A DNA stretch of 21,366 nt from a candidate division WOR-3 bacterium (lineage in GTDB: Bacteria; Hydrothermota; UBA3072; B12-G15). Within the stretch, counting starts at the first letter, position 1. Each line of letters opens with the position of its first letter. The notes under the pieces were generated by a model. The model did not search any database. It was not told the DNA's origin and worked only from the letters and a program-made list of their open reading frames with translations. Below are positions 641 to 20,857 of the stretch, piece by piece. Where the stretch lies: positions 3,343-24,708 of the forward strand of contig CBFGJG010000031.1 in assembly GCA_965649055.1 (NCBI GenBank), read 5' to 3'. The translations under genes and the position numbers were made by a program.

Positions 641-913
641 TTATTTCCCAAATCTGCCACCACTCCTTCTATTCCCGCCATCTCCAGAAGTGTTATTTCT
701 ATTATTATCTTGTGGAGATGAAGAACCTGATGTTGGTTGTGAATTATCTTTTCCAGCATTAAAAATAATCTCTGCTATATTAGTTATTTTTTCCTTTATA
801 GTATCACCAAAGAACTTCCAGATAGTTATACTCGCAACTGCTACGAGTGCAACTATTAATATGTACTCTATCATTGTTTGTCCTAACTTTGAAAATTTTT
901 TTTGTATTTTCAT
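641..913 (-). CDS. flp: Flp-family pilin with a low-complexity C-terminal tail
   Basis: Class III signal KKFSKLG|QTMIEY with the Flp E5-Y6 motif, a hydrophobic helix, then a 37-aa S/G/N/R-rich tail. Start overlaps the upstream stop (ATGA at 910-913) and has a GGAGG SD. Confidence 0.88.
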   Translation of the reverse strand: MKIQKKFSKLGQTMIEYILIVALVAVASITIWKFFGDTIKEKITNIAEIIFNAGKDNSQPTSGSSSPQDNNRNNTSGDGGNRRSGGRFGK

Positions 914-2547
914 AATCCCTCCAATTTTTTTGATACTTTTTTTATTTTTTCAAGAATTTCATTATAAATTGATGCATCTTTATAATTAGTAAGCATCTTT
1001 AAAGCAGTCTCATAGTTATTAAGTGCTTCTTTATATTTATCCTTTGCAGCTTCTGAATTATAATAATTTTCTTCGTATTCTTTTCCCTCTTCAAACTTTG
1101 CATCACCTTTTTTTAAATATTCTTGGACTATATTATTTACTTGTTCCGGTATATTACCTTTTTCCTGTTTTCTAATTTCTGTTTCTTCTTTACTTTTTTC
1201 CTTTTTAGTTTGTGGGGGTGTTTTATCTTGTTTTTGGGCTTCAAATCCTAATAATACAACTTTTGGAATTTCAGTTAATTTTAGCCTTTCGTCAATTATC
1301 CTGGTATCAACAATGTTAGAAAATCGGTTTTTTATTTCTTTATAAAAATTCTCTGCTACCTTTAATTTTTTTTCATTTAATAATAAATGATCTCCAAATT
1401 CTATTGACTTATCAAAGAGATGTTTAATTTCGTCGTTATAAAGAGAAAATTTTAACAAAGTATCAAGTATAACAAGAAAATCTTTCATATAACTACTAGA
1501 TTGTTTGTTGAAAATTTTATTGAGTGAATCAAACAACAAACTCCTGTATTTTTTTTCAATAAGCATTTTTTCGTATTCATTTAATCTTTCCTTATTATAG
1601 AAAAACGTATCTTTTACGCTATTTATTAAAGATTCTGCCGTTATTATATATCCATCTTTTAAAGTTACTTCTATATATTTTAAAATATTCTCTTCCTTAT
1701 ATTTTTTTTCAAGCTCAACAATTTTATCCTCGATATTTTTTTCATACTTTATTTTCAATGAATTTTTATAAAAATCTATAGCAAGTAAATATTCCTTATT
1801 GTTTTCATATTCTTCTGCCTGTTTTATTAAATTATTGTAATTAGATATAATTTCTTTACTTTTTTCACTTTTATAAAGAAGAACTGATAATAAAAAGATC
1901 AAAAATATTATTACCAAAGAGAATCTTTTTATTTTTTGGGGCATAAAGATCTTTTGTGGAGAAATGTCCTTAACCAAAAAAATCATTTTCACGTCTCCAA
2001 ATTGGATTATGTCTTTATCATTCAATAAAGTTTCTTTATGCACATTTATATTATTAACAAATGTTCCGTTTCTGCTCCCTAAATCTTCAACATATACATT
2101 TTTACCTTTTACGACTATTCTTGCATGAAATTTTGAAACAGATGGGTCATCTATGAAAATATCGGATGATGGGCTTCTTCCAATATTTGCAGTATCAAAT
2201 AATATAAATTTTTCACCTTTTTTATTCCCATCAATAATATAAAGATATCCTATTATCTTTTCTTTTTCTACATACTGAATCTGTATTGTTAATCCGCCAA
2301 TATTTATAATATCTTCGTTTGATATATTTGCTTCTTCTACTCTCATTCCATTAAGTAATACTGATCCTTTTTCAGCACGAATATAATAGCCATTTTTACC
2401 CTTGATTATTGAGCAATGGATATCAGAAATATTTTCTTCCTTTATTACTATGGTATTTTTATTACCGTTTCCAATTGTTATTGTGTCTAATTCTGTTGAT
2501 AATTCTTTTATTTTATTATTTCCTTTATATATTTTCAGAATAATCAT
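910..2547 (-). CDS. Tandem FHA-FHA, single TM, extracytoplasmic TPR-like helical protein
   Basis: FHA2 is canonical (IGRSPSSDIFIDDPSVSKFHA...DLGSRNGTFVN). FHA1 is degenerate (IGNGNKNTIVIKEENISDIHC). TM is FSLVIIFLIFLLSVLLY. TPR-like helices include LIKQAEEYENNKEYLLAIDFYKNSLKI and AAKDKYKEALNNYETALKML. Confidence 0.85.
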   Translation of the reverse strand: MIILKIYKGNNKIKELSTELDTITIGNGNKNTIVIKEENISDIHCSIIKGKNGYYIRAEKGSVLLNGMRVEEANISNEDIINIGGLTIQIQYVEKEKIIGYLYIIDGNKKGEKFILFDTANIGRSPSSDIFIDDPSVSKFHARIVVKGKNVYVEDLGSRNGTFVNNINVHKETLLNDKDIIQFGDVKMIFLVKDISPQKIFMPQKIKRFSLVIIFLIFLLSVLLYKSEKSKEIISNYNNLIKQAEEYENNKEYLLAIDFYKNSLKIKYEKNIEDKIVELEKKYKEENILKYIEVTLKDGYIITAESLINSVKDTFFYNKERLNEYEKMLIEKKYRSLLFDSLNKIFNKQSSSYMKDFLVILDTLLKFSLYNDEIKHLFDKSIEFGDHLLLNEKKLKVAENFYKEIKNRFSNIVDTRIIDERLKLTEIPKVVLLGFEAQKQDKTPPQTKKEKSKEETEIRKQEKGNIPEQVNNIVQEYLKKGDAKFEEGKEYEENYYNSEAAKDKYKEALNNYETALKMLTNYKDASIYNEILEKIKKVSKKLEGL

Positions 2548-2549
2548 CT

Positions 2550-3560
2550 TTATAATCCTTCTTTTAGCTTTAATATTTCTTTATAGTATTTACTATTTAA
2601 ATCATTATCAATGTATAAAATTACTTCATTTATTAAATCGTTAGCCATTTGATTATCACCTAATACTATATTTCTGTTAATTTCGTCAAAAAATTTTTTT
2701 AAAAATTTATCAAGTGAATCTTCAATGAACTTTCTAACATTATATATGTTTTCTCTATCCACATCTGAAATATTGATATTTTTAGAAACTGATTCAATAC
2801 TTGAAAATTTTTTATACGCCCTATAAAGATAATTTTTATTTGAAGGACTAAATCCATAGAAATAATTGAGCCCAGATTCAATATCATCTTTTAAAACAGA
2901 AATCTTTTTTACTTCTATAATAACATTGTCAATATTATCTATGTTGGTTTTTTGTTGCTCCTGTTTTGATATTATTTCTTTACTATTTTCCTGGCTTTTT
3001 TTATTCGGTGAGAACAATACAGATAATATTAAAAATATAAAAATGATAAGAGGTATGCTTAAAATTAATTTTTTATTTATTTTTTTATCTTCTTTTTTTA
3101 CTTTAATTTTTTCTGCAACATTTTCATATTTTTCTTCTCTAAAAACTTTTTCATCCAGAATCATAGTTTTAGGTATCTCTTCTTTTTGTTCCATAAGAAA
3201 TATTTTCTCTTCAGCTGTTACATCTGCTGTATTTTCCTTTCTTAATTCATTCTTGCTCTCTTCACTTATTTTCTTAAATCTTAATACAAATATGCCTATT
3301 TCAATTATATCGTTAGGGTGTAAAGGAACTTTCTCTTTATTTATAAATTTTCCATTAACATAAGTCCCATTTTTACTTTTGTCAACAAGCTCATATTTAT
3401 CATCTATTTTAACAATGAAGCACTGATGTCTTGATATTGTTCCATCAGTTAAAACTAAATCATTATCTTCAGCCCTTCCAATACTAAAATTGTCTTTATT
3501 TATTTCAATTATTTCCCCTTTTCTTTTTCCTTTGGTTATTTCAAGAACAAATTTATCCAC
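2550..3560 (-). CDS. FHA-domain single-pass membrane protein
   Basis: N-terminal FHA (SIGRAEDNDLVLTDGTISRHQC...DKSKNGTYVNG), charged linker, TM LILSIPLIIFIFLILSVLF, helical C-terminus. Confidence 0.85.
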   Translation of the reverse strand: MDKFVLEITKGKRKGEIIEINKDNFSIGRAEDNDLVLTDGTISRHQCFIVKIDDKYELVDKSKNGTYVNGKFINKEKVPLHPNDIIEIGIFVLRFKKISEESKNELRKENTADVTAEEKIFLMEQKEEIPKTMILDEKVFREEKYENVAEKIKVKKEDKKINKKLILSIPLIIFIFLILSVLFSPNKKSQENSKEIISKQEQQKTNIDNIDNVIIEVKKISVLKDDIESGLNYFYGFSPSNKNYLYRAYKKFSSIESVSKNINISDVDRENIYNVRKFIEDSLDKFLKKFFDEINRNIVLGDNQMANDLINEVILYIDNDLNSKYYKEILKLKEGL

Positions 3561-3900
3561 AGTTCTCTTCCTCCTCTATTATTTTTACTTTTTCATGGAT
3601 AGGAATTTCTATTAATTCATTTGAAAAACATTCTATACAATTCGCAGAGTTTAATGTTCCAAATATAAACCTTTTAGGAGGAACTTCTTTTATTTTTTTC
3701 ACTATTACATTTCTTTTCGAAAGAAAATATACATCAATATTTTCTCTCATAAAAAAGGTATGAATTGATGAACAATTTGGGAAATAATATAATCTTTTAT
3801 CTGGATTTCTTCCAATAAGACCTAAGAGTTTCTCAAAAAATCCATTTAAAATTATTATCTCCATTTGCTTTTCTCCAACAAAAAGTTTACCTTTTCTCAT
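3553..3900 (-). CDS. DUF192 family protein
   Basis: FFEKLLGLIGR and FPNCSSIHTFFMRENIDVYFL match the DUF192 pattern, a family often found beside tad genes. The track start at 3903 is TTG; ATG at 3900 (TGATG overlap with tadC) or at 3864 (GGAG SD) is more likely. Confidence 0.8.
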   Translation of the reverse strand: MRKGKLFVGEKQMEIIILNGFFEKLLGLIGRNPDKRLYYFPNCSSIHTFFMRENIDVYFLSKRNVIVKKIKEVPPKRFIFGTLNSANCIECFSNELIEIPIHEKVKIIEEEENCG

Positions 3901-4769
3901 CAAAATAATCCTGATTTAACAAGCATAAAAAATACAGGCCCTAATATTATAATAAATGTAGCAGGAAAAATAAATAAAACAAGTGGAATAGTCATTTTAG
4001 CAGGTGCTTCGTTTGCAAGTTTTTCTGCTCTATTAAATCTTTTTAATCTTATTTCTTCAGATAGAGACCTTAATATTGCACCTAAACTTGCTCCCAATTC
4101 ATCTGCTTGAATTATTGAGGTTGTAAAAGATATTGCTTCTTCCAAGTTAACTCTTCTTGCAAATTCTTTTAGTGCTTCTTTCCTTGTTTTCCCTAAAGAA
4201 AGCTGTGAGATTAATCTTTCAAGTTCCTTTTTCAACGCATTTTCTGGAATCCTTGGCAATATCTTTTTTAAAGCAGTATTGAATTCCAAACCTGCTTCTA
4301 CGACAAGCACAAGAAGATCCAAAAAATTTGAAAAATTTTTGACAATTTCTCTTTCTCTCATTTGAGTTCTTGAACTAATAATTAAATCTGGGTATGAAAA
4401 AAGTAGAGTTCCAAAAACAATAAATGTTAAAAACCAAACACTTATATCGAGATGAAGATTTAAAAGTAGCTTAAAATATAATAATAATATTGGAGCTGTT
4501 AAAAATAACAGTATTTTTATAGAGATAAAATCTTCGAAAGTTATTTCATCTTCGAGACCGCTCCAAATAAGTTTCTGCTTTATTGTCTCTCTATATATAG
4601 GATTTTTAATTTTACTTGTATAAATGTTGATAAATGGAATTAAGGGTCTGTATAATGAAAATAAAATAATCTTATACCTTCTTTTTGTTTTTATCTCCTC
4701 TGTTGGAATCAAATTATATGTTAATAGAAATATTGATATAAAAAAAAGAATATAAATTATAAATAGCAT
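3900..4769 (-). CDS. tadC: Tad inner-membrane platform protein TadC (T2SSF domain)
   Basis: FLDLLVLVVEAGLEFNTAL, LGKTRKEAL, IIQADELGASLGAILR, AEKLANEAPAKMTIPLVLFIFPA; lies directly after tadB; GGAGG SD. Confidence 0.93.
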   Translation of the reverse strand: MLFIIYILFFISIFLLTYNLIPTEEIKTKRRYKIILFSLYRPLIPFINIYTSKIKNPIYRETIKQKLIWSGLEDEITFEDFISIKILLFLTAPILLLYFKLLLNLHLDISVWFLTFIVFGTLLFSYPDLIISSRTQMREREIVKNFSNFLDLLVLVVEAGLEFNTALKKILPRIPENALKKELERLISQLSLGKTRKEALKEFARRVNLEEAISFTTSIIQADELGASLGAILRSLSEEIRLKRFNRAEKLANEAPAKMTIPLVLFIFPATFIIILGPVFFMLVKSGLF

Positions 4770-4778
4770 CGTTCCTCC

Positions 4779-5624
4779 TTAAACTTCTATTGTTGTTATT
4801 TTTTTTATGAAGAAAAAACCTATTATTTCTAAAATTATTCCAAAAGTTATCACAATTTTACCTATAAGATCTTCTATAAAAGGCATCATTATATCAGGAG
4901 CTAACATTGCAATTACAAAACCAAGTAGGAAAGGCATTATTGCAGTAAGAATTCCCTGAAATTTTCCCAAACTTGTCAATGCATCGAGTTTTCTCATAAG
5001 CTGATTCCTCTCCCTCATTGTCTTTTCAATTCTTTCAAAGACTTCTGATATTCTTCCTCCTGTTTCCTGAGATAAAGCAGTTGCTGAAATAACTATATTT
5101 AAATCTTCGCTGGGAATTCTTTTTTTAAGTTTTTCAAGTGCTTCTATAAAAGGGGTTCCAAGTTGAACTGCTTTTAGAACAAGTCCAAATTCTTGTGAGA
5201 TTGGCGGGGACATCTCTTTTACTACTGTTTCAAGTGCACGATTTAGACTTACACCTGCTTTCAATGAACTTGTAAAAAGTGCAAGGGCATCAACTAACTG
5301 GTCATCAAATTTCTTAAGCCTCCTTTTTTTCGCTAATTCTGAAAATATTTTTGGTGAAAAAAATGTAAATGCTCCAAGAACAAGGCCTAAGAAATAATTT
5401 CTAAAAATTATAGTAAAAAAGAGAAAAATTATTACAGCACCTATAAGTGTCCATTTAAAAATAAACTTTGGATCAATTTCCATAAAAAGAGAATCAAGGT
5501 CTTGAATCATTTTTTCATTAAGTGTTTTTACAACTTTATCAATAAGTTCAAATATAAGTTTTATAAATAAAAAAACTGTTCCAAACACAATACCATAAAT
5601 GATGAATTCAATTATTATATACAT
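4779..5624 (-). CDS. tadB: Tad inner-membrane platform protein TadB (T2SSF domain)
   Basis: FDDQLVDALALFTSSLKAGVSLNRAL, PPISQEF, ETGGRISEVF, RERNQLMRKLDALT. Start moved from 5663 to ATG 5624 (MYIIIEF), which has a GGGAGG SD and avoids overlap with cpaF. Confidence 0.93.
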   Translation of the reverse strand: MYIIIEFIIYGIVFGTVFLFIKLIFELIDKVVKTLNEKMIQDLDSLFMEIDPKFIFKWTLIGAVIIFLFFTIIFRNYFLGLVLGAFTFFSPKIFSELAKKRRLKKFDDQLVDALALFTSSLKAGVSLNRALETVVKEMSPPISQEFGLVLKAVQLGTPFIEALEKLKKRIPSEDLNIVISATALSQETGGRISEVFERIEKTMRERNQLMRKLDALTSLGKFQGILTAIMPFLLGFVIAMLAPDIMMPFIEDLIGKIVITFGIILEIIGFFFIKKITTIEV

Positions 5625-5628
5625 TTTA

Positions 5629-7182
5629 TCAACCTCCCTGGAATAAATTATATGGGACCTCAATTTGTTTTTGCTTTAATTCTTCGAAAAATCTCGGGAC
5701 TATTCCTGTTGCCTCAAAATTTCCAATAACCCTTTTATTCTCATCAATCCCTTTTTGTCTAAAAATAAATATATCTTGTGTTAGGATTGTCTGCCCTTCT
5801 AATCCACATATCTCTGTAATGTTTGTGACTTTTCTTGAACCATCAGGGAACCTTGATAAATGAATAATGATGTCAATCGCCGATGCTATCTGCTCTTTTA
5901 TTGCTCTCTCAGGAAGTTCCGTTCCTGCAAATAAAACCAATGTTGCAAGTCTTGACAAAGCATCTCTTGGAGAATTTGCATGGATTGTAGAAAGAGAACC
6001 ATCATGACCAGTATTCATTGCTTGCAGCATATCAAGTGCTTCTCCACCTCTTACCTCTCCAACTATAATTCTGTCAGGTCTCATTCTAAGTGAGTTTTTT
6101 ACCAGCTCCCTTATCGTTACCTCTCCTAATCCTTCTATATTTGGTGGTCTTGCTTCAAGTCTTATAACATGGGGCTGAGATAATTTTAATTCAGCGGAAT
6201 CTTCTATAGTAATAATTCTTTCATCTGGTGGGATAAAACTTGAGAGAACATTTAAGAATGTTGTTTTTCCTGTGCCTGTTCCACCTGAAACAAGTATATT
6301 TTTTCTATATTTTACCGCTATAGATAAAAATTTTATCATATTTTCTGATAGTGCTCCAAGAGACAATAAATCCTTTTCAGTCATTCTTCTTTTAGGAAAT
6401 TTTCGGATAGTTACAACTGGTCCTATCAGTGATATTGGGGGGATTATTACATTAACCCTTGAACCATCTTTAAGTCTCGCATCAACATAAGGTTGGGATT
6501 CATCAACTCTTCTTCCAATGGTTGAAACTATTTTATTTATAACATTTTTTAAACTTTCAACATCGGTGAATCTGCTTTCAGTCAAGTAAATCTTACCATC
6601 TTTTTCAATATATATTTTATCAGGACCATTAACCATAATTTCTGTTACTTCTTCATCATTTAAGTAATCTTCAATTGGGCCTAAACCTAACAAATCATCT
6701 TTTAATTTCTTTATAATTATCTTTCTATCTATTCCGGCAGGTAATTTTATTTCTTCCATGATTTCTCTAATCATTGAATCAACGTATTTTGACTTTTGCT
6801 CATCATCAAACGATTCAAGGTTTATTTTTTTTATATTTTGAATGTCTATAATTTTTGTCTTTATATTTCTCAATAACTCGTTTATTTTATCATCATCTTT
6901 CACCTTTCCTAATAAAATCTTATACGAACCTATTTGAATAACAGAATTTTCATTTAATTGAATTTCGGTATTATTAATTCTTTTTCCATCAACTATACTT
7001 CCATTTCTACTTTTATCCACATAGTATATCTTTCCATCCATATTCTTTATTTCTCCATGAAATGATGACACTATAGGTTCGCTTATTATTATGTCATTAC
7101 TTGTATCTCTCCCTATTTTACATATTTCTCTAAGAATTATCTCTTTTTGTTTATTATCCGAACTTATTACTATTATCTTCAT
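5629..7182 (-). CDS. cpaF: CpaF/TadA pilus assembly ATPase with an N-terminal FHA domain
   Basis: LGLGPIE, EIMVNG, PYVDARLKDGSRVN, Walker A GGTGTGKTT, TIEDSAEL, LRMRPDRIIVGEVRG, TGHDGSLSTIHANS. The first ~90 aa form an FHA (KIGRDTSNDIIISEPIVSSFHG...DKSRNGSIVDG). Confidence 0.96.
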   Translation of the reverse strand: MKIIVISSDNKQKEIILREICKIGRDTSNDIIISEPIVSSFHGEIKNMDGKIYYVDKSRNGSIVDGKRINNTEIQLNENSVIQIGSYKILLGKVKDDDKINELLRNIKTKIIDIQNIKKINLESFDDEQKSKYVDSMIREIMEEIKLPAGIDRKIIIKKLKDDLLGLGPIEDYLNDEEVTEIMVNGPDKIYIEKDGKIYLTESRFTDVESLKNVINKIVSTIGRRVDESQPYVDARLKDGSRVNVIIPPISLIGPVVTIRKFPKRRMTEKDLLSLGALSENMIKFLSIAVKYRKNILVSGGTGTGKTTFLNVLSSFIPPDERIITIEDSAELKLSQPHVIRLEARPPNIEGLGEVTIRELVKNSLRMRPDRIIVGEVRGGEALDMLQAMNTGHDGSLSTIHANSPRDALSRLATLVLFAGTELPERAIKEQIASAIDIIIHLSRFPDGSRKVTNITEICGLEGQTILTQDIFIFRQKGIDENKRVIGNFEATGIVPRFFEELKQKQIEVPYNLFQGG

Positions 7183-8165: not shown

Positions 8166-8167
8166 TA

Positions 8168-8923: not shown

Positions 8924-8935
8924 ATATCCTCCTTT

Positions 8936-11359: not shown

Positions 11360-11375
11360 AAAATCCCCCTTTTAT

Positions 11376-12743: not shown

Positions 12744-12751
12744 ATTTCCTC

Positions 12752-14440
12752 CTAATGATATCTTATTTTCAGGTTTAAAATTGCATCAATATAGTTATTC
12801 ACTTTTTCCTCTTGTTCTTCAGATAGTCCATATCCTTTTTGTTTCATCTTCTGGTTAACATTATCTATTACCTGATGTATATCTATACTTGTATATCTCT
12901 GAATAACCCTATTCAAATCTACTTCACCGACTGGCATAAGAGTTGCCCGCCAGGATGGTTTAAAAAGGAATGTTGGAACCTCTTCACTCTCAGGGTCTTC
13001 ATAGAAAATACGACTTTTTGCAACTGTTAAATATGGTGGAAGTATCTGATTGAATGTTGACTTTTTAGGTAATTCTACTGAAAATGTTACAACAGATTCA
13101 ACTGAATCTATCGGATAAAACTCCCCAAGCATCTTTTTATCTCTCATCATACCAAAAACAAGTTCAATTGCTGCATCAACAAATAAACTAAACGAAAATA
13201 CCACAGAAAGATCATAATAGAAACCGAGAGAATCACATTGCCATGCACATACATCATATAGACAGGTTTTAAAATATGTTGTATCTACATTTACTATAGT
13301 ATCTATTTTACCATTACTTTGCACTTTATATGTTGTATCTACATTAACTTTAATACTATCTAACCACTGACTTTTACAACAAGAAGATGTTGGATTACCA
13401 TTTCGGTCTATTACGCAATTAACTCGTGGACAATATGTTGCGTCTTTAGTTGAATAAGAGTAAGTTCTTGTGTCACTTATATACCAATGCCCATATGAAA
13501 AATAATACCGGCAATTACTCTTTATGGTTAAACTATATGCTGCATAAACATCTATCTTTCCAGGAATAGGTAATTCTGTAACAGGAGATGAAGAGCTGCT
13601 AAAAATCAAAACTTTTTCTTTTTGGTCAACTATTGTTTTAGAAAAAGACCATACACTTTCAGGAACAACGAATTCTCCAAGTGTTATTCTACTTAAGATT
13701 GCATCAGCATACCTTTCATCTCCTAATTTGGAAATCATCCAATTTCTTATAGTATTACGATAATTTATTAAATTCCAAGTAATACCGGGAGGCGTCTTAT
13801 TATTACAACTACGATGTTTTGGGGATTCCTTATAATCAAGATAAAAATCTATTGATATATTAGGCATTTCATACCTTATTCCACCAAGATTTTCTGAAGA
13901 AACATCATATTGCGATGAATGTTCTGTCCACATTGTTCTTTCATTCCCACCTTTTTGGGAAGTTTGTGTCTGAGAAAAAAGTCTGTCATTTGATAATTTC
14001 ATCTCTTTTACACATAAATTTGGTGGTAATGGATATGGAAATGTAATATCTGCACCATTCATAATACCAACCAGTGCATTAGTTAATGTCCCAAGATGAT
14101 ATTTATTGAACGCCTTTTGTATAAACCTTTGCGTGTGTAATTGCAATCTTATAAACTTTGGTGGGAACTCTGTTCCTGGATATGCACCGAATGCTGCGGC
14201 TATTATTGTTCCTACATAACTTGTTGTTATAGTTAGATTAAGTGCAGTTATAAGATTCAATCCTCTTGCCTGCCAAGAAGATGTGGAAACAGAAGCAAGG
14301 TCTGTAGCATTCTGAACTTTCATTCTTGTGTATACAATCTTACCAATATTATAAACCGAAATAAAAACAAAAACCAATGTTGCTAAAAATACTATAAAAA
14401 GTGGTAAAACCTGACCTTTTTTATTCCTATTCATTTTCAT
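12752..14440 (-). CDS. TadG-like large minor pilin / tip adhesin with a Cys-rich region
   Basis: NKKG|QVLPLF without E5, as is typical of TadG/PilX-like pilins; TM helix; KVQNATDLAS...QARGLN Tad N-terminal motif; 10 Cys; C-terminal W-R-A-T-L-M-P-V closing strand. Confidence 0.8.
   Translation of the reverse strand: MKMNRNKKGQVLPLFIVFLATLVFVFISVYNIGKIVYTRMKVQNATDLASVSTSSWQARGLNLITALNLTITTSYVGTIIAAAFGAYPGTEFPPKFIRLQLHTQRFIQKAFNKYHLGTLTNALVGIMNGADITFPYPLPPNLCVKEMKLSNDRLFSQTQTSQKGGNERTMWTEHSSQYDVSSENLGGIRYEMPNISIDFYLDYKESPKHRSCNNKTPPGITWNLINYRNTIRNWMISKLGDERYADAILSRITLGEFVVPESVWSFSKTIVDQKEKVLIFSSSSSPVTELPIPGKIDVYAAYSLTIKSNCRYYFSYGHWYISDTRTYSYSTKDATYCPRVNCVIDRNGNPTSSCCKSQWLDSIKVNVDTTYKVQSNGKIDTIVNVDTTYFKTCLYDVCAWQCDSLGFYYDLSVVFSFSLFVDAAIELVFGMMRDKKMLGEFYPIDSVESVVTFSVELPKKSTFNQILPPYLTVAKSRIFYEDPESEEVPTFLFKPSWRATLMPVGEVDLNRVIQRYTSIDIHQVIDNVNQKMKQKGYGLSEEQEEKVNNYIDAILNLKIRYH
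13274..13345. repeat. 18-bp exact direct repeat, two copies 54 nt apart, inside the TadG-like gene
   Basis: atatgttgtatctacatt at 13274-13291 and 13328-13345; the protein shows VNVDTTY twice. Confidence 0.85.
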
Positions 14441-15146
14441 ACTCCAGTTCCTTTGAATAATATATTACAAGTGCTGTTTTCGCTTTTAGTGGGAAATAGT
14501 ATAAACCTTTATTTATTTTGGTGAATGGGTCATCCCGAACGATTGGTAAATAACCAAGCATTCTATTAACCAAAGGAACAATAAGTCTATAATGATAAGT
14601 TACCTCACCTATAGCAACAGGTATCTTTTCAGTAGGTGAATCAAGATATAATCTTGCTTCAACAAGTTCTAATGTTCTTGAATATCTTTTAAGAAAGTCC
14701 TTCCCAAATTCATGGATATTTCCTGAATATATTTCCTGGGCAAAACTAAGATTCCTTAACCAGAATCTAAATTCATCAGGTATACCTGCAAAAATCCTAT
14801 TTTTTCCTTCAACACTTACAGCAGTTAAAGGAAGGGCGGCTATGATTCTCGCAGTATCAAATTGGGCAGGGAAAAAACCTATTCCCGTATCACATTCTAC
14901 AAGAGTCCAACCAAACCTAAAAATTGGAAAAGGTTGTATAAAAAATCTTCTTTCAAAATGTTTTCCCTGTGGGTCGTTTTTCGCAGAATAAACGCAACCA
15001 TACCTTGCAACACAGAAAGATGAATATTTTGTAACTATTAATGCAGTGGTTATTAGCCCAAATTGTAGTATTACTAATATTAAAATTATTATTACAGGTA
15101 TAACAAAGACTGATTCTATCATTGCCTGACCTTTTTTTGCCCTCAT
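14427..15146 (-). CDS. tadE: TadE family minor pilin
   Basis: KKG|QAMIESVFVIPVIIILILVILQFG...VARYG; C-terminal VTYHYRLIVPLV typical of TadE/TadF. Confidence 0.85.
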   Translation of the reverse strand: MRAKKGQAMIESVFVIPVIIILILVILQFGLITTALIVTKYSSFCVARYGCVYSAKNDPQGKHFERRFFIQPFPIFRFGWTLVECDTGIGFFPAQFDTARIIAALPLTAVSVEGKNRIFAGIPDEFRFWLRNLSFAQEIYSGNIHEFGKDFLKRYSRTLELVEARLYLDSPTEKIPVAIGEVTYHYRLIVPLVNRMLGYLPIVRDDPFTKINKGLYYFPLKAKTALVIYYSKELEYENE

Positions 15147-15147
15147 T

Positions 15148-15681
15148 TTATACCCCCAAGATTTTATATATAGGTATTATATTTTTTTCTATAAAGAAGT
15201 TTATCAGAACTGATATTCCTATTGGGATTGTGAAAGGAAATCTAACCATACTTTTTTTATCTACTTGCATATTAAGAAATATAAATAGTATGTTCTTTAA
15301 TCCTTGTTTTATTCTTTTATTTCTAATCATCTGCAATAAAGCAAAAAATCCACCGATAATTGTAGATAAGATAAATATTATTAAGAAAGACTTTAATCTT
15401 AAAATAGCGCATAATGATATTAGTAGTTTAGCATCACCTGCACCAAAAACATCTAAACTATAAAAGAAAAATGATATAATAAAAGCAATTAAGACTTCTC
15501 CTATATAAATAACAATTTCAATAAAAAGAGGATGCCGGTTTTGTATTATATAGAAAAGATTAATAACAAAACCTAATACAAAACCGGCTAAAGATACCCA
15601 GTTTTTCAATTTTCCCATTCTTAAATCTTGAAATACCGAAATCGCTATCATTAAAAAAACAGCAATCCAAGCAAAATGCAT
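15148..15681 (-). CDS. tadV: A24 prepilin peptidase TadV/CpaA
   Basis: Both catalytic Asp motifs are present (QDLRMGKLKN, FGAGDAKL); polytopic; C-terminal FPFTIPI. Start moved to ATG 15681 because 15705 falls inside the upstream pilin gene. Confidence 0.92.
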   Translation of the reverse strand: MHFAWIAVFLMIAISVFQDLRMGKLKNWVSLAGFVLGFVINLFYIIQNRHPLFIEIVIYIGEVLIAFIISFFFYSLDVFGAGDAKLLISLCAILRLKSFLIIFILSTIIGGFFALLQMIRNKRIKQGLKNILFIFLNMQVDKKSMVRFPFTIPIGISVLINFFIEKNIIPIYKILGV

Positions 15682-15688
15682 ATTGCCC

Positions 15689-15865
15689 TTATTTGTGCTG
15701 AGCATTAAATATTCTGGTGGCCAAATCTGAAAATAATTTAGCTATCTTTCCTCTAAAAAAGGCAAATGCGGTAATGGCACCAACTGCGATAACTGCAACA
15801 ATCAGAATGTATTCGATCATTGTCTGGGCATCTTCCTCTTTGAAAAACCTTTTTAAAAGTTTCAT
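15689..15865 (-). CDS. flp: Flp pilin, 58 aa, probable major pilin (not in ORF track)
   Basis: MKLLKRFFKEEDA|QTMIEYILIVAVIAVGAITAFAFFRGKIAKLFSDLATRIFNAQHK. Strong SD AAAGGAGG; ATGA overlap with the upstream gene; classic position just before tadV. Confidence 0.93.
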   Translation of the reverse strand: MKLLKRFFKEEDAQTMIEYILIVAVIAVGAITAFAFFRGKIAKLFSDLATRIFNAQHK

Positions 15866-17247
15866 AAAACCTCCTTTCGGTTTTTTTTGTAAACAACGAC
15901 CTTTTCATTTTCAAAGACCTTTAACCATTCTTTGTTGTTATAAATATGTCTTACCATTTTATGATTCTTGGGAAGAATAAAGCCATCTATTCCATATATC
16001 TTTACTAAACCTTTCCAATAATATGTATCCTGTTCAAATACTAAAAGAGAATTAAAATTGGAAAGTGTGTAAGGTTCTTTTAAGTCAAAAAATATCTTCT
16101 TGTTTTCATCATCGTTTAATAACAGAAATAAACCTGTCCATAAATAATATACGTAAATTCTTGTGAAATCAATATTTGTTGAATTTTGAATTGCTTCAAA
16201 TACTAATTTATTTTCACCTAATTTCAACAAGTTATCATTCTTATTTATAAATATAAAAATTATAAATATTATAAAAATAAAAGGTATAGAGAATATGAAT
16301 GAATTAAATTGCTCAGCTATCTTGAAAGATTCTCTTTCTATTTTTATCTTCTTCAAGATATCAGTAATAATCGGTAAAGATGCTATGAGTAAAACTGGTA
16401 TGAATCTTGTACCTAAAAATGGAAAATAAAAGAATGAACAGAAAAAAATTATATCAGGTAAAGAAATTTTAGAAATCCCTATCAAGAAGAACAATACAAT
16501 TAAATAAAGAATTGAAAAAATATCAAAACCGGTTTGCCATTCTGTTATATTTTCATAGATTGTTAAATCTTTAAGTAAAATGAAAGGAATTTTAAAAACT
16601 TTTATGAAATAAGGATTAATTAACGAAATAATTATCGAACTGATAATAACTAAAAAGAATTTCTTATCCCATTTACTATTTTTTATTCTTATAAAAATTG
16701 AATAAATAATCAAAGTATAGAAACCCAAAACGAAAGATGGATGTATATTTACCCATATCAAAAAAATTAAGGGTATAAGGTTGAAGTATTTCCTATCAGT
16801 AAAAAATAAGATATAGATTAAAATATTAAAAATAAAATATCCTAAAAATAATGGTCTTATAGAACGAAAGATTAATATATTGAATAATATCAAAAATAAA
16901 ATAATACTACTTAAGATGGGATTTATATTTGATTTTCTAAAAATTTTAACCAAAAGTATTAACCAAGATAAAAATAAAACGAATTGAAAAATTCTTAGCA
17001 TCAAAGGTGAAACATTATATAATCTATAAAATATTAAATCAGAAAGCCATTGTAAGTTCATTTCTTCCTTGTCTGGTTCAGTAAAATACAAATTTGAAAA
17101 AGATGGAATCTTAAAAGGATTATTTATATACTTACCTATAGATATATGCCAAATGGTATCTACATCAATATCAGTTTTAATTAATAAAGTAATTGCAAAT
17201 AAAATGATAATAATATCATATATTGATGGAATTAAAAATTTCTTCAT
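15862..17247 (-). CDS. Polytopic membrane protein, probable GT-C-fold glycosyltransferase
   Basis: Acidic motif after TM1 (DIDVDTIWHISIG), then QWLSDLIFY, IRP, WVNIHPSFVLG, INPY, ITEWQ; roughly ten hydrophobic segments; soluble C-terminal domain ending WLKVFENEKVVVYKK. Confidence 0.65.
   Translation of the reverse strand: MKKFLIPSIYDIIIILFAITLLIKTDIDVDTIWHISIGKYINNPFKIPSFSNLYFTEPDKEEMNLQWLSDLIFYRLYNVSPLMLRIFQFVLFLSWLILLVKIFRKSNINPILSSIILFLILFNILIFRSIRPLFLGYFIFNILIYILFFTDRKYFNLIPLIFLIWVNIHPSFVLGFYTLIIYSIFIRIKNSKWDKKFFLVIISSIIISLINPYFIKVFKIPFILLKDLTIYENITEWQTGFDIFSILYLIVLFFLIGISKISLPDIIFFCSFFYFPFLGTRFIPVLLIASLPIITDILKKIKIERESFKIAEQFNSFIFSIPFIFIIFIIFIFINKNDNLLKLGENKLVFEAIQNSTNIDFTRIYVYYLWTGLFLLLNDDENKKIFFDLKEPYTLSNFNSLLVFEQDTYYWKGLVKIYGIDGFILPKNHKMVRHIYNNKEWLKVFENEKVVVYKKNRKEVL
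15870..15877 (-). promoter_or_regulatory. Strong Shine-Dalgarno site (AAAGGAGG) of the probable major pilin
   Basis: cctccttt on the + strand, embedded in the last codons of the upstream gene, 4 nt before ATG 15865. Confidence 0.8.
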
Positions 17248-17254
17248 ATCTACC

Positions 17255-17401
17255 TCACGGCAATGGTATTGTGAAAATTAAAAATACCCTTAAGTAAATT
17301 ATATTCATAATGTTACGGAAAAGTGCTGATCCAACTATGAATGCACCTATTAGCGTTGCAACCACTAAAACATATTCAACCGTTGTTTGACCTTTTTTCA
17401 T
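17255..17401 (-). CDS. 48-aa Flp-like small pilin (not in ORF track)
   Basis: MKKG|QTTVEYVLVVATLIGAFIVGSALFRNIMNIIYLRVFLIFTIPLP. GGAG SD at 17410-17413; ATGA overlap with the PP2C stop at 17398-17401. Confidence 0.85.
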   Translation of the reverse strand: MKKGQTTVEYVLVVATLIGAFIVGSALFRNIMNIIYLRVFLIFTIPLP

Positions 17402-18903
17402 TTTTTATACTCCGGATATAGTTCATATTTATTAGCTTTCTTATTTATTGTTATTTCAAGAAAATCATCTTCCTTAAAAAGGAGGAATGTATCCAAAACA
17501 ATCTGATTATTTAAATTTTTTAAAACAAAATTATATTCATCCGGTAATATCTTAAACTCTTTCTCTTTATAAGAACTTAGTTTCCCAGAAATAGAATCTT
17601 TTCCTTTTAAAATTAATGTAAAGTCTTCAGAAAATGTATAAAAAATCTTAAATTTAGCTTTCTTTTTTGTTAGTACAATGTTTGTATCTATTTTATTATC
17701 TTTTCCTTTCAACATATTTATTATTGAATCCAATCTAAATGTAAAAGTTTCGTATCCTTGTTTTTTTAATCTTAAACTGTATGATGTATCTTTGTGAAAC
17801 GTCCTTTTTAAAACCACCGGAGTTTCTCCAATCTCTTCTTCGTTTCCAATCTCTTTTTTTAATAAAAAGACCTTGGCACTGTCCGGAGTTGTTTTAATAT
17901 TAATCTCTAACTCTATTTTCTTATTCTTTTCTATATTTGTTCTGTAAAAAATAAACGAAATAAAGGATAAAATTAAAAATAAAGAAGCAACTGCTATTGA
18001 GCCATATTTTATTAATTTTCTTTTTATATTTACACCATACCTTTTTTCAAGATACTTATCTTCAACAGGTAAAAGGGTTTCGTCTTCCTCTTTAATAGAA
18101 CCATGATATTCATTATAATTATCTGTTAAAGTTTCTTTTACCTCCTTTATAAAGCCTAAACCAACAGTAATATTGTCTTTTCCTCCATTATCTTTCGCAA
18201 TAGAAATTAAAGTATCTCCTATTTTCTTTATATCTGGGTAAAGTCTATTTATAACTTCTTCAATCTCATTTTCCCTCATCTCACCCGTGAGCCCATCAGT
18301 GCATAATAAAAATAAATCACCTTTTTTAACTCTTCCAATATTCACATCTACCTTTATATTATATTTTTGTCCCAAAGCCCTTGTAATCACATTCTTGTGA
18401 ACAAAATTCTCTGCTTCTTCTTCAGTTATTTCTTTATCATCTATTAATTCTTGAACATACGAATGGTCTTTTGTAATTCTTTGAAGCTTCATATCACGCC
18501 AAATATATGCCCTACTATCTCCAACATGAAGAACTCCATAATAATTATCAAAAAATACTGCTGAAACTATTGTTGTCCCCATACCTTTTCTACTTTTATC
18601 ATCAAGTGCTATATTATAAATTCTTCTATTTGCAAGTCTTATTCCTGTGCATAACTTTTTTACCTGTAATGGAACATCTTCCTTTATACTTGAATAAAAA
18701 AATGTTAAATCTAAATCAGAACTATAATATGTTTCTGCAACCGTATTAACAGCTAAAAGACTTGCAACCTCTCCTGCATTGTGGCCACCCATTCCATCGC
18801 AAACGATAATTAAATTATGTTTATCAAGAATCTTGAAATTATCTTCATTATCTTTTCTCTTAATACCCACATCAGTAACGCCGTAAAATAAAATATCACC
18901 CAT
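17398..18903 (-). CDS. PP2C/PPM (Stp1/PrpC-like) Ser/Thr phosphatase with TM and an extracytoplasmic PEGA-like domain
   Basis: TDVGIKRKDNED, VCDGMGGHNAGEVAS, MGTT, HVGDSRAY, TKDHS, NVITRALG, LLCTDGL, GGKDNIT. TM IAVASLFLILSFISFIFY. PEGA-like segment INIKTTPDSAKVFL...IGETP...LKKQGYE. Confidence 0.93.
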   Translation of the reverse strand: MGDILFYGVTDVGIKRKDNEDNFKILDKHNLIIVCDGMGGHNAGEVASLLAVNTVAETYYSSDLDLTFFYSSIKEDVPLQVKKLCTGIRLANRRIYNIALDDKSRKGMGTTIVSAVFFDNYYGVLHVGDSRAYIWRDMKLQRITKDHSYVQELIDDKEITEEEAENFVHKNVITRALGQKYNIKVDVNIGRVKKGDLFLLCTDGLTGEMRENEIEEVINRLYPDIKKIGDTLISIAKDNGGKDNITVGLGFIKEVKETLTDNYNEYHGSIKEEDETLLPVEDKYLEKRYGVNIKRKLIKYGSIAVASLFLILSFISFIFYRTNIEKNKKIELEINIKTTPDSAKVFLLKKEIGNEEEIGETPVVLKRTFHKDTSYSLRLKKQGYETFTFRLDSIINMLKGKDNKIDTNIVLTKKKAKFKIFYTFSEDFTLILKGKDSISGKLSSYKEKEFKILPDEYNFVLKNLNNQIVLDTFLLFKEDDFLEITINKKANKYELYPEYKK

Positions 18904-20857
18904 TTTTTATCCTTATTTTTCTGCGAATCATATCACCTAAAAGTAAAATTAAAGCTAAAATTAATAGCAAAAAATGTATGAATATTTTTTTGATAATTCG
19001 TTTTGGATCTATAGATGTATAATAGAACCTGTTGGTTAAATCAAAAACTCCAAAAGAATTACCGTATATTATCTCATTCTTGAAAATCTTTGCATCAGTA
19101 TTTATTATCTTCATATTTCCATTATTATCTTTTGCTAAGATTGAAATAAAACCATTTCCATATAAATCACCAATTACTGTGCTTGTAGATACAGAACTAT
19201 CAAATAATTTTTTCTTATAAATCAGACTTGCTTTATTACTATTTATAATATACACATAACCTAAATTATCACATATTATTATATCAAGAATTTTATCTTT
19301 ATTCACATCTGCTATGGATGGGGAAGAAACTGGTTCACCCTCCAGAGTAAACTCATTAATTATAGATTTCTTTGAACTGGAATATATTAAAATCTTATTT
19401 TCCTGATAAGAAGGAACTATCAATTCGTCATTTCCATCATTATCCAAATCTACTGAAATAGGTGAGCCTAATTTTGTGATTCCTCCCTTCCTAATATTCT
19501 CCACTTCTTTAACAAAATGAACATTCCCTAAAATATCAGATTCAAATAACTGGTCATACATACAAAAAGCCGCTACAAATAATTCTTTATTCCTTATAAA
19601 TATTGTTGGTGAAGATATAACATCTAAACTATAAGATGGTTTAACCATTCTTTCTTGTAAATATTTCTCTTCAAGATCAAATGTACTGATTTTTCCTTCT
19701 AAAGAAACAATAAACATTTTAGAACCTGAAAAAGTAATAATATTCTCCTTTGGAGCAAAAACAGGGGGAAGATTTAAAGGATAACCAACATTAAATTTAT
19801 TACTGATAACAAATTCAGAATGAATATTTTTTATAATACTAATATAACCATTCTCAGTCGTAGCAATGATTTCATTTCTATTGTCTTTATCAATATCTAC
19901 TACAATTGTTGGAAAAACAATCGGTCCTAATAAAGTCATTATTTTTGAAACAACCGTTGAACCGTCTAATCCATTTAATAATATTATATTACCCTCTTCT
20001 GTCTGGCATAAAATGTCATAATTTTTTGAATTTTCTGACAATTTACAACAGTAAGCAGATTTTATATTATATGAATTCTGTTCCCAAATAATTTTCTTCT
20101 CCTTTATGTCATATAAAGATATAATACCGTTTTCTACAATTGGAATATCAATACCACCTGAATTATTACAATTATTTACAGATAGTATAGGATTTTTGTT
20201 AACAATATTAAGAGCTTCTTCATAAAAATTTCCAATTGGGTTTTGTGTAATAATTTTATATCTATTCATTTCTTTCATAGAAAAGAATAATGATTCAATA
20301 ATTATATATATACATACTATTGGAGATAAAATGTAAAGAATTCTTTTTATTAGACTTCCTGCTTTTCTTGGTGGTGCAAAACTTATTTTATCACCATAGC
20401 AGAATCTAAAGATATTTCTTCCTATCTCTATTTCATCTCCCTGTTTAAGTTCTACTTCGTCTTCTTCTTTTACAATCTTCTGGTTTATATAGGTTCTATT
20501 TCTACTTCTTTTATCCTGTAAAACATACTTACCCCCAACAACCTTTATTACCGCATGCCTTCTTGAAGCCATTGTATCACCTTCAAGAACTATATCGTTA
20601 AAATTAGGCTCTCTACCAATCTTTGTTTCGTCCGATTTTAAGAGAAACTTTTTCCCAAAATACTTACCATCAATACAAACCAGATAAGCTGCTTTTACAG
20701 TCTTTATTACAGTGGAAGCCCTATCATCTTTTCTTCTTTCTACCTGAATAGTTTCGTCTTTAATTTCTTCATCATCTTTTTCCTTCTTTTTTCTTATGTC
20801 TTCTGTTTCATCCTTGTCTAAATCTTTTCTATTAATATTATCTTTTGTTTCTTCCAT
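18896..20857 (-). CDS. FHA domain, TM, FG-GAP/VCBS-like beta-propeller, C-terminal TM
   Basis: FHA KIGREPNFNDIVLEGDTMASRRHA...DKRSRNRTYIN. Ca-loop repeats DIDKDNRNEII, DLDNDGNDELIV, DVNKDKILDII, DLYGNG. Hydrophobic helices near aa 175-195 and at the C-terminus. Confidence 0.85.
   Translation of the reverse strand: MEETKDNINRKDLDKDETEDIRKKKEKDDEEIKDETIQVERRKDDRASTVIKTVKAAYLVCIDGKYFGKKFLLKSDETKIGREPNFNDIVLEGDTMASRRHAVIKVVGGKYVLQDKRSRNRTYINQKIVKEEDEVELKQGDEIEIGRNIFRFCYGDKISFAPPRKAGSLIKRILYILSPIVCIYIIIESLFFSMKEMNRYKIITQNPIGNFYEEALNIVNKNPILSVNNCNNSGGIDIPIVENGIISLYDIKEKKIIWEQNSYNIKSAYCCKLSENSKNYDILCQTEEGNIILLNGLDGSTVVSKIMTLLGPIVFPTIVVDIDKDNRNEIIATTENGYISIIKNIHSEFVISNKFNVGYPLNLPPVFAPKENIITFSGSKMFIVSLEGKISTFDLEEKYLQERMVKPSYSLDVISSPTIFIRNKELFVAAFCMYDQLFESDILGNVHFVKEVENIRKGGITKLGSPISVDLDNDGNDELIVPSYQENKILIYSSSKKSIINEFTLEGEPVSSPSIADVNKDKILDIIICDNLGYVYIINSNKASLIYKKKLFDSSVSTSTVIGDLYGNGFISILAKDNNGNMKIINTDAKIFKNEIIYGNSFGVFDLTNRFYYTSIDPKRIIKKIFIHFLLLILALILLLGDMIRRKIRIKNG

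Follow-up and report, generated by a model that had tools for sequence, protein, structure and literature searches.

We analysed a 21,366-nucleotide stretch of DNA (hereafter the window) from a candidate division WOR-3 bacterium, corresponding to positions 3343-24708 of contig C31 in genome bin G000 (2.08 Mb in 85 contigs, 93.8% complete, 31.6% G+C). Every long open reading frame (ORF) lies on the minus strand. The 23 genes, transcribed in the order g23 to g01, form one operon in which intergenic gaps do not exceed 17 bp, start and stop codons often overlap, and many overlaps extend for 1-35 bp. The right end of the window is the contig end, so that the operon is truncated at its upstream end. 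Searches of the window proteins against Pfam and NCBIfam identified all structural parts of a Tad/Flp (type IVc) pilus. The operon most likely encodes the whole machine, in a form that belongs to the FHA-linked, Kil-type subclass, and its gene content suggests that the pilus is probably switched by protein phosphorylation. All items listed in a first-pass annotation of this DNA were confirmed by Pfam, NCBIfam, the sequence itself or, for the GT-C-like protein, a structure model: a Tad core, six prepilins, four proteins with five FHA domains between them, a membrane PP2C, a GT-C-like protein and a lipase-type lipoprotein. The signalling genes, Tad core genes and pilin genes are as follows (G269 is the genome with a sister locus described below; L numbers denote loci used for comparison).

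g22, 18896..20857, minus strand: cytoplasmic FHA domain, transmembrane segment (TM), extracytoplasmic FG-GAP/PQQ-like beta-propeller and C-terminal TM (FHA 63 bits, FG-GAP_3, Beta-prop_ACSF4)
g21, 17398..18903, minus strand: membrane PP2C Ser/Thr phosphatase with Stp1-like catalytic domain, TM at residues 301-319 and a beta-rich extracytoplasmic domain of ~180 amino acids (aa)
g04, 2550..3560, minus strand: FHA domain, TM (residues 165-183) and ~150-aa extracytoplasmic domain, in the MXAN_4649/Bd0473-type position (FHA 72 bits, Yop-YscD_cpl 62 bits)
g03, 910..2547, minus strand: two FHA domains (2xFHA), TM (residues 206-224) and ~320-aa helical extracytoplasmic domain, Bd0474/KilD-like (FHA 106 bits, two stretches)
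g08, 5629..7182, minus strand: CpaF/TadA motor ATPase with N-terminal FHA domain, class III CpaF with KilF architecture (T2SSE 220 bits, FHA 54 bits)
g07, 4779..5663, minus strand: TadB platform protein (Pfam T2SSF), 38% identical to the L101 protein
g06, 3900..4769, minus strand: TadC platform protein of KilH/Bd0470 type (Pfam T2SSF)
g10, 8168..8923, minus strand: CpaB/RcpC of KilB type (TIGR03177 111 bits, cut-off 71), 48% identical to the G269 orthologue
g09, 7182..8165, minus strand: short secretin of 327 aa (Pfam Secretin domain alone, 47 bits)
g17, 15148..15705, minus strand: prepilin peptidase of CpaA/TadV/KilA type (Peptidase_A24 51 bits)
g18, 15689..15865, minus strand: 58-aa Flp pilin (Flp_Fap 30.3 bits, slightly below the 32.2 cut-off), 45% identical to the G269 orthologue
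g20, 17255..17401, minus strand: 48-aa Flp-like prepilin, leader KG/QTTVEY, no Pfam match, 37.5% identical to a 48-aa G269 orthologue
g02, 641..913, minus strand: 90-aa Flp pilin (Flp_Fap 33.1 bits, cut-off 32.2) with a ~40-aa Ser/Gly/Asn-rich C-terminal tail
g16, 14427..15146, minus strand: TadE-type minor pilin, leader KG/QAMIES, Pfam TadE sub-threshold, 39% identical to the G269 orthologue
g15, 12752..14440, minus strand: TadG/KilN-type minor pilin of 562 aa with a ~500-aa C-terminal domain (Tad PF13400 26.4 bits, cut-off 22.3), 40% identical to the G269 orthologue
g13, 12070..12594, minus strand: third minor pilin (TadE/F-like), leader KG/QGAVEG, no Pfam match, 37% identical to the G269 orthologue

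The four FHA proteins carry five FHA domains: two in g03 and one each in g04, g08 and g22. Pfam searches of the whole genome revealed five FHA matches, all on C31 and all within the operon, and a single PP2C_2 match, which is g21. When the FHA domains were aligned to the FHA profile, the canonical phosphothreonine-binding residues (Gly-Arg, Ser-x-x-His and Asn) were found in three of the five: the FHA domain of g08 (residues 22-85), the second FHA domain of g03, and that of g22. g21 passed the Stp1/IreP equivalog cut-off in NCBIfam (Stp1_PP2C_phos 249 bits vs 230) besides matching Pfam PP2C_2, and its sequence has the catalytic motifs DGMGG, TDG and GGKDN. Its similarity to the G269 orthologue, which occupies the same position, extends over 477 aa at 41.5% identity and includes the extracytoplasmic domain.

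g22, with TM segments at residues 169-187 and 625-643, is a candidate envelope sensor or scaffold. A search with its propeller part gave a match in 1 of 271 other genomes of the phylum, the full-length orthologue P0017 of G269 (39% identity over 629 aa). Beyond G269, one protein with FHA plus FG-GAP domains (P0021) showed a weak, partial match; otherwise only domain-level matches were present in 80 genomes of the phylum, and peptide patterns found no relative in metagenome contigs. The motif E-T-[IV]-x-[IV]-E-R stands directly N-terminal of the g22 FHA domain (residues 30-45) and is kept in both G000 and G269 (L181:4177-6069); it is a candidate phosphothreonine site.

Among the core proteins, g08 matched the solved Caulobacter CpaF in a sequence search of PDB (E 2e-125), and g06 matched the TadC of a tadC-FHA locus of Bdellovibrionales, L091 (E 6e-46). 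No N-terminal pil_N, BON or N0 domain was detected in the g09 secretin by Pfam. The Secretin-only architecture is also found in the G269 orthologue (333 aa) and in the secretin of L053 (264 aa); the secretin of L101 differs, having 453 aa and pil_N, BON and Secretin domains. None of the 23 window proteins matched CbiA, ParA or AAA_31 in Pfam, indicating that no TadZ/CpaE is encoded in the window. All six prepilins have a G/Q...E leader, three of them being Flp-type (g02, g18, g20) and three TadE/G-type (g13, g15, g16); g02 and g15 alone passed the Pfam cut-off, and the rest were sub-threshold or called by the leader motif. g18 is likely the major pilin. Structure prediction placed g13 together with g15 and g16, mainly through a bundle of the three N-terminal helices, with an interface score (ipSAE) of 0.76; the best of three controls scored 0.27. 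The mark used for this score was attained by 51 of 78 solved complexes and by 2 of 108 mismatched pairs, but a three-chain job is unlike this calibration set and hydrophobic helices may bundle readily. At least 66% of contacts agreed between model runs, and partner pLDDT (predicted local distance difference test) was at least 63. The prediction gives moderate support to g13, g15 and g16 forming a KilLMN-like pilus tip.

G269 belongs to the same class as the source genome and to another family, and was the sole match in the propeller search described above. Its 16.8-kb contig is collinear with the window from a g23-like gene to TadB. Identities were 39% for g22, 41.5% for PP2C, 33% for the GT-C-like protein, 37-40% for the three minor pilins, 36% for g12, 48% for CpaB, 41% for the 333-aa secretin, and 60.5% over the full length of FHA-CpaF; CpaA and both small Flp genes were also present. 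TadC was not found in the G269 bin, and the sister contig ends in TadB. Upstream of the g23-like gene, G269 has a 333-aa gene of no assigned function preceded by a 753-aa kinase with Pkinase and PEGA domains, three genes upstream of the g22 orthologue; the sister locus begins with this Ser/Thr kinase gene.

To compare Tad loci more widely, CpaF was scanned in one genome per species, yielding 80 loci, and Pfam was run on the 37 longest of 85 CpaF reading frames. The N-terminus of CpaF contained an FHA domain in 14 of these frames, a fused TadZ-like ParA domain in 9, and neither in 14. The FHA-CpaF hosts were labelled Spirochaetaceae, Gamma- and Betaproteobacteria, Lentisphaerota, "Deltaproteobacteria" or unclassified; the nine TadZ-CpaF frames comprised all Bdellovibrionota rows and two genomes of the same phylum as the window. 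Fusions of CpaF to a TadZ/CpaE-like ParA domain were seen in L016, L017, L018, L031, L040, L053, L065, L087, L088, L121, L136, L159 and L164. Two of the 14 frames with neither domain, L047 and L077 (Acidithiobacillus), have long CpaF N-termini that matched a local FHA profile, not Pfam FHA at 1e-4. In the CpaF tree both fall within the group of FHA-CpaFs, and their N-termini may be FHA domains in decay.

In a quick CpaF tree (86 rows), 56 rows with plain CpaFs (Bacillota, Chloroflexota, Actinomycetota and others) formed a clade that did not include the window. A TadC tree (67 rows) contained a 17-row clade with a support of 98 in the Shimodaira-Hasegawa-like approximate likelihood ratio test (SH-aLRT), comprising all 14 TadCs of FHA-CpaF loci, including the window, together with two split tadC-FHA loci (L091 and L092) and L053. 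A more careful TadC tree (77 rows), to which ten metagenome rows had been added, recovered a 27-row clade with an ultrafast bootstrap (UFBoot) of 96 and an SH-aLRT of 97; its bootstrap was not fully settled, and the added rows had been picked by similarity. Its members were 16 FHA-CpaF loci (the window among them), 6 split TadC-FHA loci of Bd0470 type and 5 TadZ-CpaF loci, and no other TadC lay inside this clade. It spans several phyla and includes many non-delta-proteobacterial systems, with FHA-CpaF loci labelled Thauera, Chromatiales, Halofilum, Oleiphilus, Spirochaetaceae and Lentisphaeria.

TadCs of the same phylum (L086-L088) fell outside the FHA-linked clade. Tad systems are rare in the host phylum: CpaF was found at E<=1e-40 in 5 of 80 other genomes, none of them among the 14 that share a family, order or class with the source genome. 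Vertical inheritance within the phylum was considered and not upheld: the relatives with a CpaF have either TadZ-CpaF or the plain form, and their TadCs fall outside the clade, yet the CpaF tree groups them weakly with the window.

The metagenome set consisted of 80 loci retrieved with a four-sequence TadC alignment. Complete CpaF genes adjoining this type of TadC carried FHA in 23 of 27 cases and TadZ in 4 of 27, and none (0 of 27) had neither. The FHA and TadZ modules at the CpaF N-terminus look like alternatives for one job. Where at least 6 kb was available past TadC (23 loci), an FHA gene was present in 15, a 2xFHA gene in 8 and DUF192 in 9.

The micro-synteny TadC-DUF192-FHA-(FHA)-2xFHA is common to the window, L091, L092, L101, L111, L137 and L178, and in L091 (a Bdellovibrionales chromosome) and L092 the order is TadC-DUF192-FHA-FHA-2xFHA. 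The architecture of g03 occurs at the equivalent position in L091, L092, L093, L094 and L101. L101, a metagenome locus, is a near gene-for-gene match to the window: PP2C (39% identical to g21), Flp, CpaA, TadE, TadE, TadG, a g12-like gene, CpaB, secretin and FHA-CpaF, followed by TadB (38%), TadC (36%), DUF192, an FHA-TM protein (26% identical to g04 over 369 aa), a 2xFHA+TPR protein, a kinase, and a kinase with an NHL propeller. The order in L093 is secretin-FHA-CpaF-TadB-TadC-FHA-2xFHA-PP2C-kinase, and that in L094 (Victivallales) is FHA-CpaF-TadB-TadC-FHA-2xFHA...CpaA-TadE-TadG. In L040 (Oligoflexia), FHA, 2xFHA and PP2C genes immediately precede Flp-CpaA...TadZ-CpaF-TadB. Among the related loci, kinase genes are present in G269, L101 (two) and L093, and PP2C genes in G269, L101, L093, L137, L178 and L040. 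The linkage of FHA, PP2C and kinase genes to tad genes, together with the TadC clade, therefore speaks for the Kil-like, phosphorylation-controlled Tad system proposed by the first-pass annotation rather than for an ordinary adhesion Tad system whose relatives keep such genes elsewhere.

Two further features of these loci were noted. L121, a tad locus with TadZ-CpaF, has a gene for a second ATPase of MshE/PilB type (15536-17341; T2SSE 405 bits plus MshEN) directly behind its three FHA genes. Two split tadC-FHA-PP2C loci differ in what follows PP2C (L137:16844-17602, L178:16874-18229): one has a gene for a Fic/DOC protein there, the other a gene for a response-regulator receiver protein.

The remaining genes of the window are accessory, small or uncharacterised.

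g19, 15862..17247, minus strand: polytopic membrane protein with predicted GT-C glycosyltransferase fold, between two pilin genes; no Pfam match
g11, 8936..11359, minus strand: lipoprotein (lipobox) with lipase-type alpha/beta hydrolase (GHSMG), PKD and C-terminal jelly-roll-like domains (Pfam PGAP1 46 bits)
g12, 11376..12101, minus strand: conserved 241-aa protein with N-terminal TM or signal anchor; no Pfam/NCBIfam match
g14, 12591..12743, minus strand: 50-aa single-TM ORF with 4-bp overlap, uncertain as a real gene
g05, 3553..3903, minus strand: small DUF192-like protein (Pfam DUF192 sub-threshold, 19.8 bits)
g01, 3..623, minus strand: coupled downstream gene with beta-strand-like sequence, 17-bp gap to g02; no Pfam/NCBIfam match
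g23, 20871..21365, minus strand: coiled-coil protein with C-terminal TM, 5'-cut at the contig end with ~20 residues lost; no Pfam/NCBIfam match

The g19 profile gave no match among PDB sequences. A search of 5.8 billion clusters yielded only 14 relatives at E<=1e-5, of which several carry TPR repeats in the same protein. An AlphaFold2 (AF2) model built on the alignment of these relatives had a pLDDT of 81.5 and a predicted template modelling score (pTM) of 0.84. When it was compared with PDB by Foldseek, the first 33 matches listed were all GT-C enzymes, including STT3/PglB/AglB, DPY19, AftA, ALG9/12, ArnT and AftD (best E 8.5e-5, TMq 0.55). The first extracytoplasmic loop contains D26-x-D28-x-D30 ahead of an invariant H34, acidic residues such as are found in GT-C enzymes. 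The model thus supports a GT-C fold for g19, and the "GT-C-like" label of the first-pass annotation holds at the level of the fold. Homologues of g19 adjoin tad genes in L020, L050, L053 (two copies), L081, L083, L121 and L159. g19 is a candidate pilin glycosyltransferase, and the Ser/Gly/Asn-rich tail of g02 is a plausible target. The L053 tad locus (9335-13754), from an uncultured bacterium, encodes the 264-aa secretin and DUF192, and after them a protein with TPR repeats, one with a single Cache domain and two GT-C-like paralogues, so that GT-C genes accompany tad genes here as well.

g11 matched secreted lipases and PKD domains in the PDB sequence search. It is missing from the collinear G269 locus, suggesting a lineage-specific insertion or loss, and no relative was found in ~170 loci; g11 therefore lies outside the conserved machine. 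g12 was 36% identical to its positional counterpart in G269 and 23% identical (E 4e-4) to that in L101; a match to PF27226 in an Atlas search scored 0.89, below 0.9, and was retained as a lead only. No relative of g14 was found in any locus compared, and G269 has no counterpart. Homologues of g05 lie immediately after TadC in L013, L036, L053, L091, L092, L101, L111, L137 and L178. g23 was 27% identical to its positional counterpart in G269 (177 aa), the alignment beginning at G269 residue 21. At the other end, g01 is truncated at its 3' end by a short run of N in C31 (~3320-3340, immediately before the window begins), where the frame reads XXXX. Further downstream in the same direction, C31:2089-3072 (L098) encodes a 327-aa protein with an N-terminal TM and TPR repeats, a possible TadD-/Bd0075-like partner.

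Taken together, we regard it as fairly probable, with some reserve, that the operon encodes a phosphothreonine-switched Tad/Flp pilus machine of the FHA-linked, Kil-type subclass. This reading is the best supported because the readers keep their binding residues and the eraser is intact and conserved in place, and because writers occur in the sister and related loci and no other FHA or PP2C gene exists in the genome. In the proposed mechanism, the g22 propeller, the helical domains of g03/g04 and the beta-rich domain of PP2C would sense a cue from the envelope or from contact. A Hanks-type Ser/Thr kinase, encoded beyond the contig end (as in the collinear G269) or among the four of the genome, would then phosphorylate threonines in the motor or in those segments of the membrane FHA proteins that face the cytoplasm. 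The FHA domains of CpaF, g03, g04 and g22 would read these marks, and the reading may bring the hexameric motor onto the TadB/TadC platform or activate it there, with Flp pilins then polymerising behind the g13/g15/g16 tip. PP2C would erase the marks and reset the machine, and the GT-C enzyme would probably glycosylate a pilin, for example at the Ser-rich tail of g02. The output is most likely regulated attachment to another cell or to a surface, and killing is possible. A more specific version combines a self-contained phosphothreonine switch on a Kil-type attack pilus with a kinase past the contig end, PP2C, four FHA readers including the motor, a propeller contact sensor, glycosylated pilins and a lipase effector; as a whole we hold it to be distinctly doubtful. 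If true, it would be the first system to name the enzymes behind Kil activation, and in a phylum without known predators.

Several observations weigh against a phosphothreonine switch of Kil type. There is no Ser/Thr kinase gene in the window. Four such kinases are encoded elsewhere in the genome, one on C54 (Pkinase+PEGA, 491 aa), two on C61 and one on C1 (fused to a sigma54-activator); those of C61 (2454-9863; L095) are tandem proteins of 1226 and 1242 aa with STAND ATPase and TPR regions. Joining C31 to a kinase contig was rejected, as no end overlap of at least 15 bp was found with any of the 85 contigs. Pairing of g21 with the C54 kinase through PEGA was likewise rejected and kept as a lead only: the two show no pairwise similarity, and the PEGA match of g21 is below cut-off (19.7 vs 20.8 bits). 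For the 333-aa neighbour of the G269 kinase gene, the G000 bin contains no match. Because this gene is unmatched and only ~20 residues of g23 are missing, the stretch upstream of g23 in G000 is probably unassembled. Among metagenome loci of at least 15 kb, PP2C was present in 3 of 18 and a kinase in 5 of 18, so that neither enzyme is obligatory in the clade. In the FHA domain of g04, Gln takes the place of His, the first FHA domain of g03 is degenerate with Arg and Asn lost, and all four FHA proteins also match Yop-YscD_cpl, the Pfam family of YscD/PrgH cytoplasmic domains. In the trees, TadC groups with Bd0470-like TadCs (96/97) in a clade that also contains many non-delta-proteobacterial systems, and CpaF places the window no more firmly than in a weak group (SH-aLRT 86) with same-phylum TadZ-type CpaFs and L053; all trees were built from sequences other than those of Myxococcus, Bradymonas, Caulobacter and Aggregatibacter. 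As a side observation, the C61 kinases are flanked by a GAF protein and a C25 (gingipain-type) peptidase, the latter running off the contig end.

Some of these points would also follow if the FHA proteins were a phosphorylation-independent scaffold or ring that replaces TadZ, with PP2C a general Ser/Thr phosphatase that merely sits in the operon. The FHA-like domains of YscD/PrgH act structurally in the type III secretion system (T3SS), and the family match shared by all four proteins fits such a role, as do the alternation of FHA and TadZ on CpaF (23 vs 4 of 27) and the one degenerate and one His-less FHA domain; MXAN_4649 has been called PrgH-like (Seef et al. 2021, supplement 1). g21 is the only PP2C beside four kinases, and must therefore serve further substrates, and most members of the clade have no PP2C or kinase nearby. 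A pure scaffold, however, does not account for the three FHA domains that keep all canonical phosphothreonine-binding residues, for the recurrence of PP2C and kinases inside the tad operons of at least six unrelated loci, or for the conservation at the same place in G269 of a PP2C complete with its extracytoplasmic domain (41.5% over 477 aa); nor is there an FHA domain elsewhere in the genome for the kinases to act through. We therefore consider the scaffold explanation quite improbable. Still less credible, and in our estimate very improbable, is a Tad-derived secretion device, a pseudopilus that exports the lipase or other lipoproteins and makes no surface pilus. Type II secretion systems are built from parts homologous to Tad, the lipase and g12 lie between the minor pilins and CpaB, and the secretin is short; yet the operon encodes three pilins of Flp type along with the kind of tip set that characterises true Tad pili, the sister locus of G269 lacks the lipase, and we know of no precedent for secretion by Tad systems.

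A further alternative is a contact-triggered killing machine for predation or epibiotic attack, as in Myxococcus Kil and with the lipase as effector or helper. The operon has the Kil hallmarks, namely an ATPase with FHA, a short secretin, numerous FHA proteins and a lack of TadZ; clade and synteny are shared with the tadC-FHA operon of Bdellovibrio that is needed for attack, a KilLMN-like tip is predicted, and a lipase-type lipoprotein lies within the operon. TrpA had no match in the 93.8%-complete genome, and HisA/F and ketol-acid reductoisomerase (KARI) had weak partial matches only. These missing amino-acid pathways, however, fit any peptide scavenger: the gene losses fit a scavenging or host-dependent life and are not specific. 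The same clade holds loci labelled Thauera, Chromatiales, Halofilum, Oleiphilus, Spirochaetaceae and Lentisphaeria, and to our knowledge there is no evidence that these members are predators. The lipase is absent from G269 and from ~170 related loci. No match to FHIPEP (T3SS/flagellar) was found in the genome, although Kil tips 1-3 need a needleless T3SS (T3SS*), which argues against a Myxococcus-like partnership of this kind. Contact triggering, predation and epibiosis, all suggested by the first-pass annotation, are shown by nothing in the present data, and we consider the killing machine unlikely. The phosphothreonine-switched pilus, used for regulated attachment, remains the reading that we prefer.

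The first-pass annotation had also known of no description of this gene combination. That was too strong: Tad systems rich in FHA proteins have been published (Kil, Bd0470-0475), as has FHA-CpaF (class III), whereas the PP2C/kinase link and the accessory genes were not in the literature searched. PP2C or kinase genes linked to Tad or Kil were not found there (subscription papers were thinly covered). New here, in being absent from the literature searched or from other loci, are the PP2C/kinase link, the fusion of FHA and propeller, the GT-C gene between pilin genes, the inserted lipase and the host phylum. The operon, together with G269, L101, L093, L137, L178 and L040, places PP2C, often with a Hanks kinase, in a tad operon. 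Since the sole FHA and PP2C genes of the genome sit in this operon, the wiring is unusually simple, and concrete enzyme-reader pairs are now available for testing. The Kil/Bd0470-type Tad subclass also reaches well past the three predatory orders to which it was first assigned, which bears on its use as a predation marker.

Myxococcus Kil is among the closest known systems. As described in the cited parts of Seef et al. (2021; PMC8460266), the defining features of Kil are the fusion of FHA to the ATPase, a short secretin that lacks N0, an abundance of FHA proteins and the absence of a second ATPase; MXAN_3102-3104 encode two propeller proteins and an FHA protein, KilD has FHA and TPR domains, and MXAN_4648/4649 (FHA+TPR and FHA, the latter PrgH-like according to supplement 1) lie beside KilH/KilG. 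The same paper restricts Kil to Myxococcales, Bdellovibrionales and Bradymonadales and equates KilH with Bd0470 (supplement 2). FHA proteins probably link prey contact to Kil assembly according to passages of that paper and of a 2025 review, which name no kinase or phosphatase; neither "phosphatase" nor "kinase" occurs in the main text of Seef et al., and "phosphatase" does not occur in PMC12034629. From the passages cited of Herrou et al. (2025; PMC12075869), the TadE/F/G-like KilL/M/N make pilus tips, and Myxococcus Kil tips 1-3 require T3SS*. The window resembles the Kil clusters MXAN_3102-3108 and MXAN_4648-4661 in having FHA on the motor ATPase, a short secretin and no TadZ, FHA and FHA+TPR proteins beside the platform genes, a TadE/F/G-like trio predicted as tip, and a beta-propeller and FHA set beside the peptidase, secretin and ATPase genes. 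The two differ in layout, the window being one 21-kb operon whereas Kil consists of two clusters plus scattered tip clusters. g22 fuses FHA and propeller in one membrane protein, whereas Kil has separate propeller and FHA proteins. The window carries PP2C, GT-C and lipase genes, none of which appears in the Kil tables and passages cited of Seef et al. and Herrou et al. Kil needs T3SS*, for which no gene was found in the source genome, and the host phylum is also different.

In Bdellovibrio bacteriovorus, a transposon sequencing study (PMC6561027) reported, in the part cited here, that tadC (Bd0470) is needed for attachment and that a mutant of the FHA protein Bd0474 attaches and fails to kill. 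Bd0470-Bd0475 form one operon, and Bd0474 has two cytoplasmic FHA domains, a TM and an extracytoplasmic TPR domain (PMC12034629, section cited). The Bd0108-0119 and Bd0470-0475 genes share with the window the type of TadC, DUF192 after TadC, and then single-FHA proteins and a 2xFHA-TM-helical/TPR protein. Bdellovibrionota-like loci L137, L178 and L040 add PP2C at the end or start of the FHA run. The Bdellovibrionota systems differ in being split in two and in having TadZ instead of FHA fused to CpaF, and the similarity between g03 and the 2xFHA protein of L091 is confined to the FHA domains. The L091 gene at the Bd0475 position (230 aa, after 2xFHA) was considered as a decayed PP2C and rejected, as it had no Pfam match and no BLAST similarity to the L178 PP2C.

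Class III CpaF was defined in a cryo-electron microscopy study (PMC12019362) as FHA, an intrinsically disordered region and CpaF, found "mostly in betaproteobacteria"; the parts of that paper cited here treat no partner FHA proteins, PP2C or kinases. g08 has the same FHA-linker-CpaF order. Next to the group IV pilin genes of Pseudomonas aeruginosa, a type IVa pilin system, lies the gene for the GT-C arabinosyltransferase TfpW, which modifies the neighbouring pilin. g19 is alike in being a GT-C protein encoded beside pilin genes, glycosylation of Flp pilins by g19 being putative. In the H1 type VI secretion system (T6SS) of Pseudomonas, the membrane kinase PpkA and the PP2C PppA write and erase a phosphothreonine mark, and the FHA protein Fha1 reads it and triggers assembly of an envelope-spanning machine. 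The logic proposed for the window is the same, applied to a Tad system instead of a T6SS through parts that have domains in common and are not orthologous. The window has no kinase gene, and it encodes four FHA readers, one of which sits on the motor itself.

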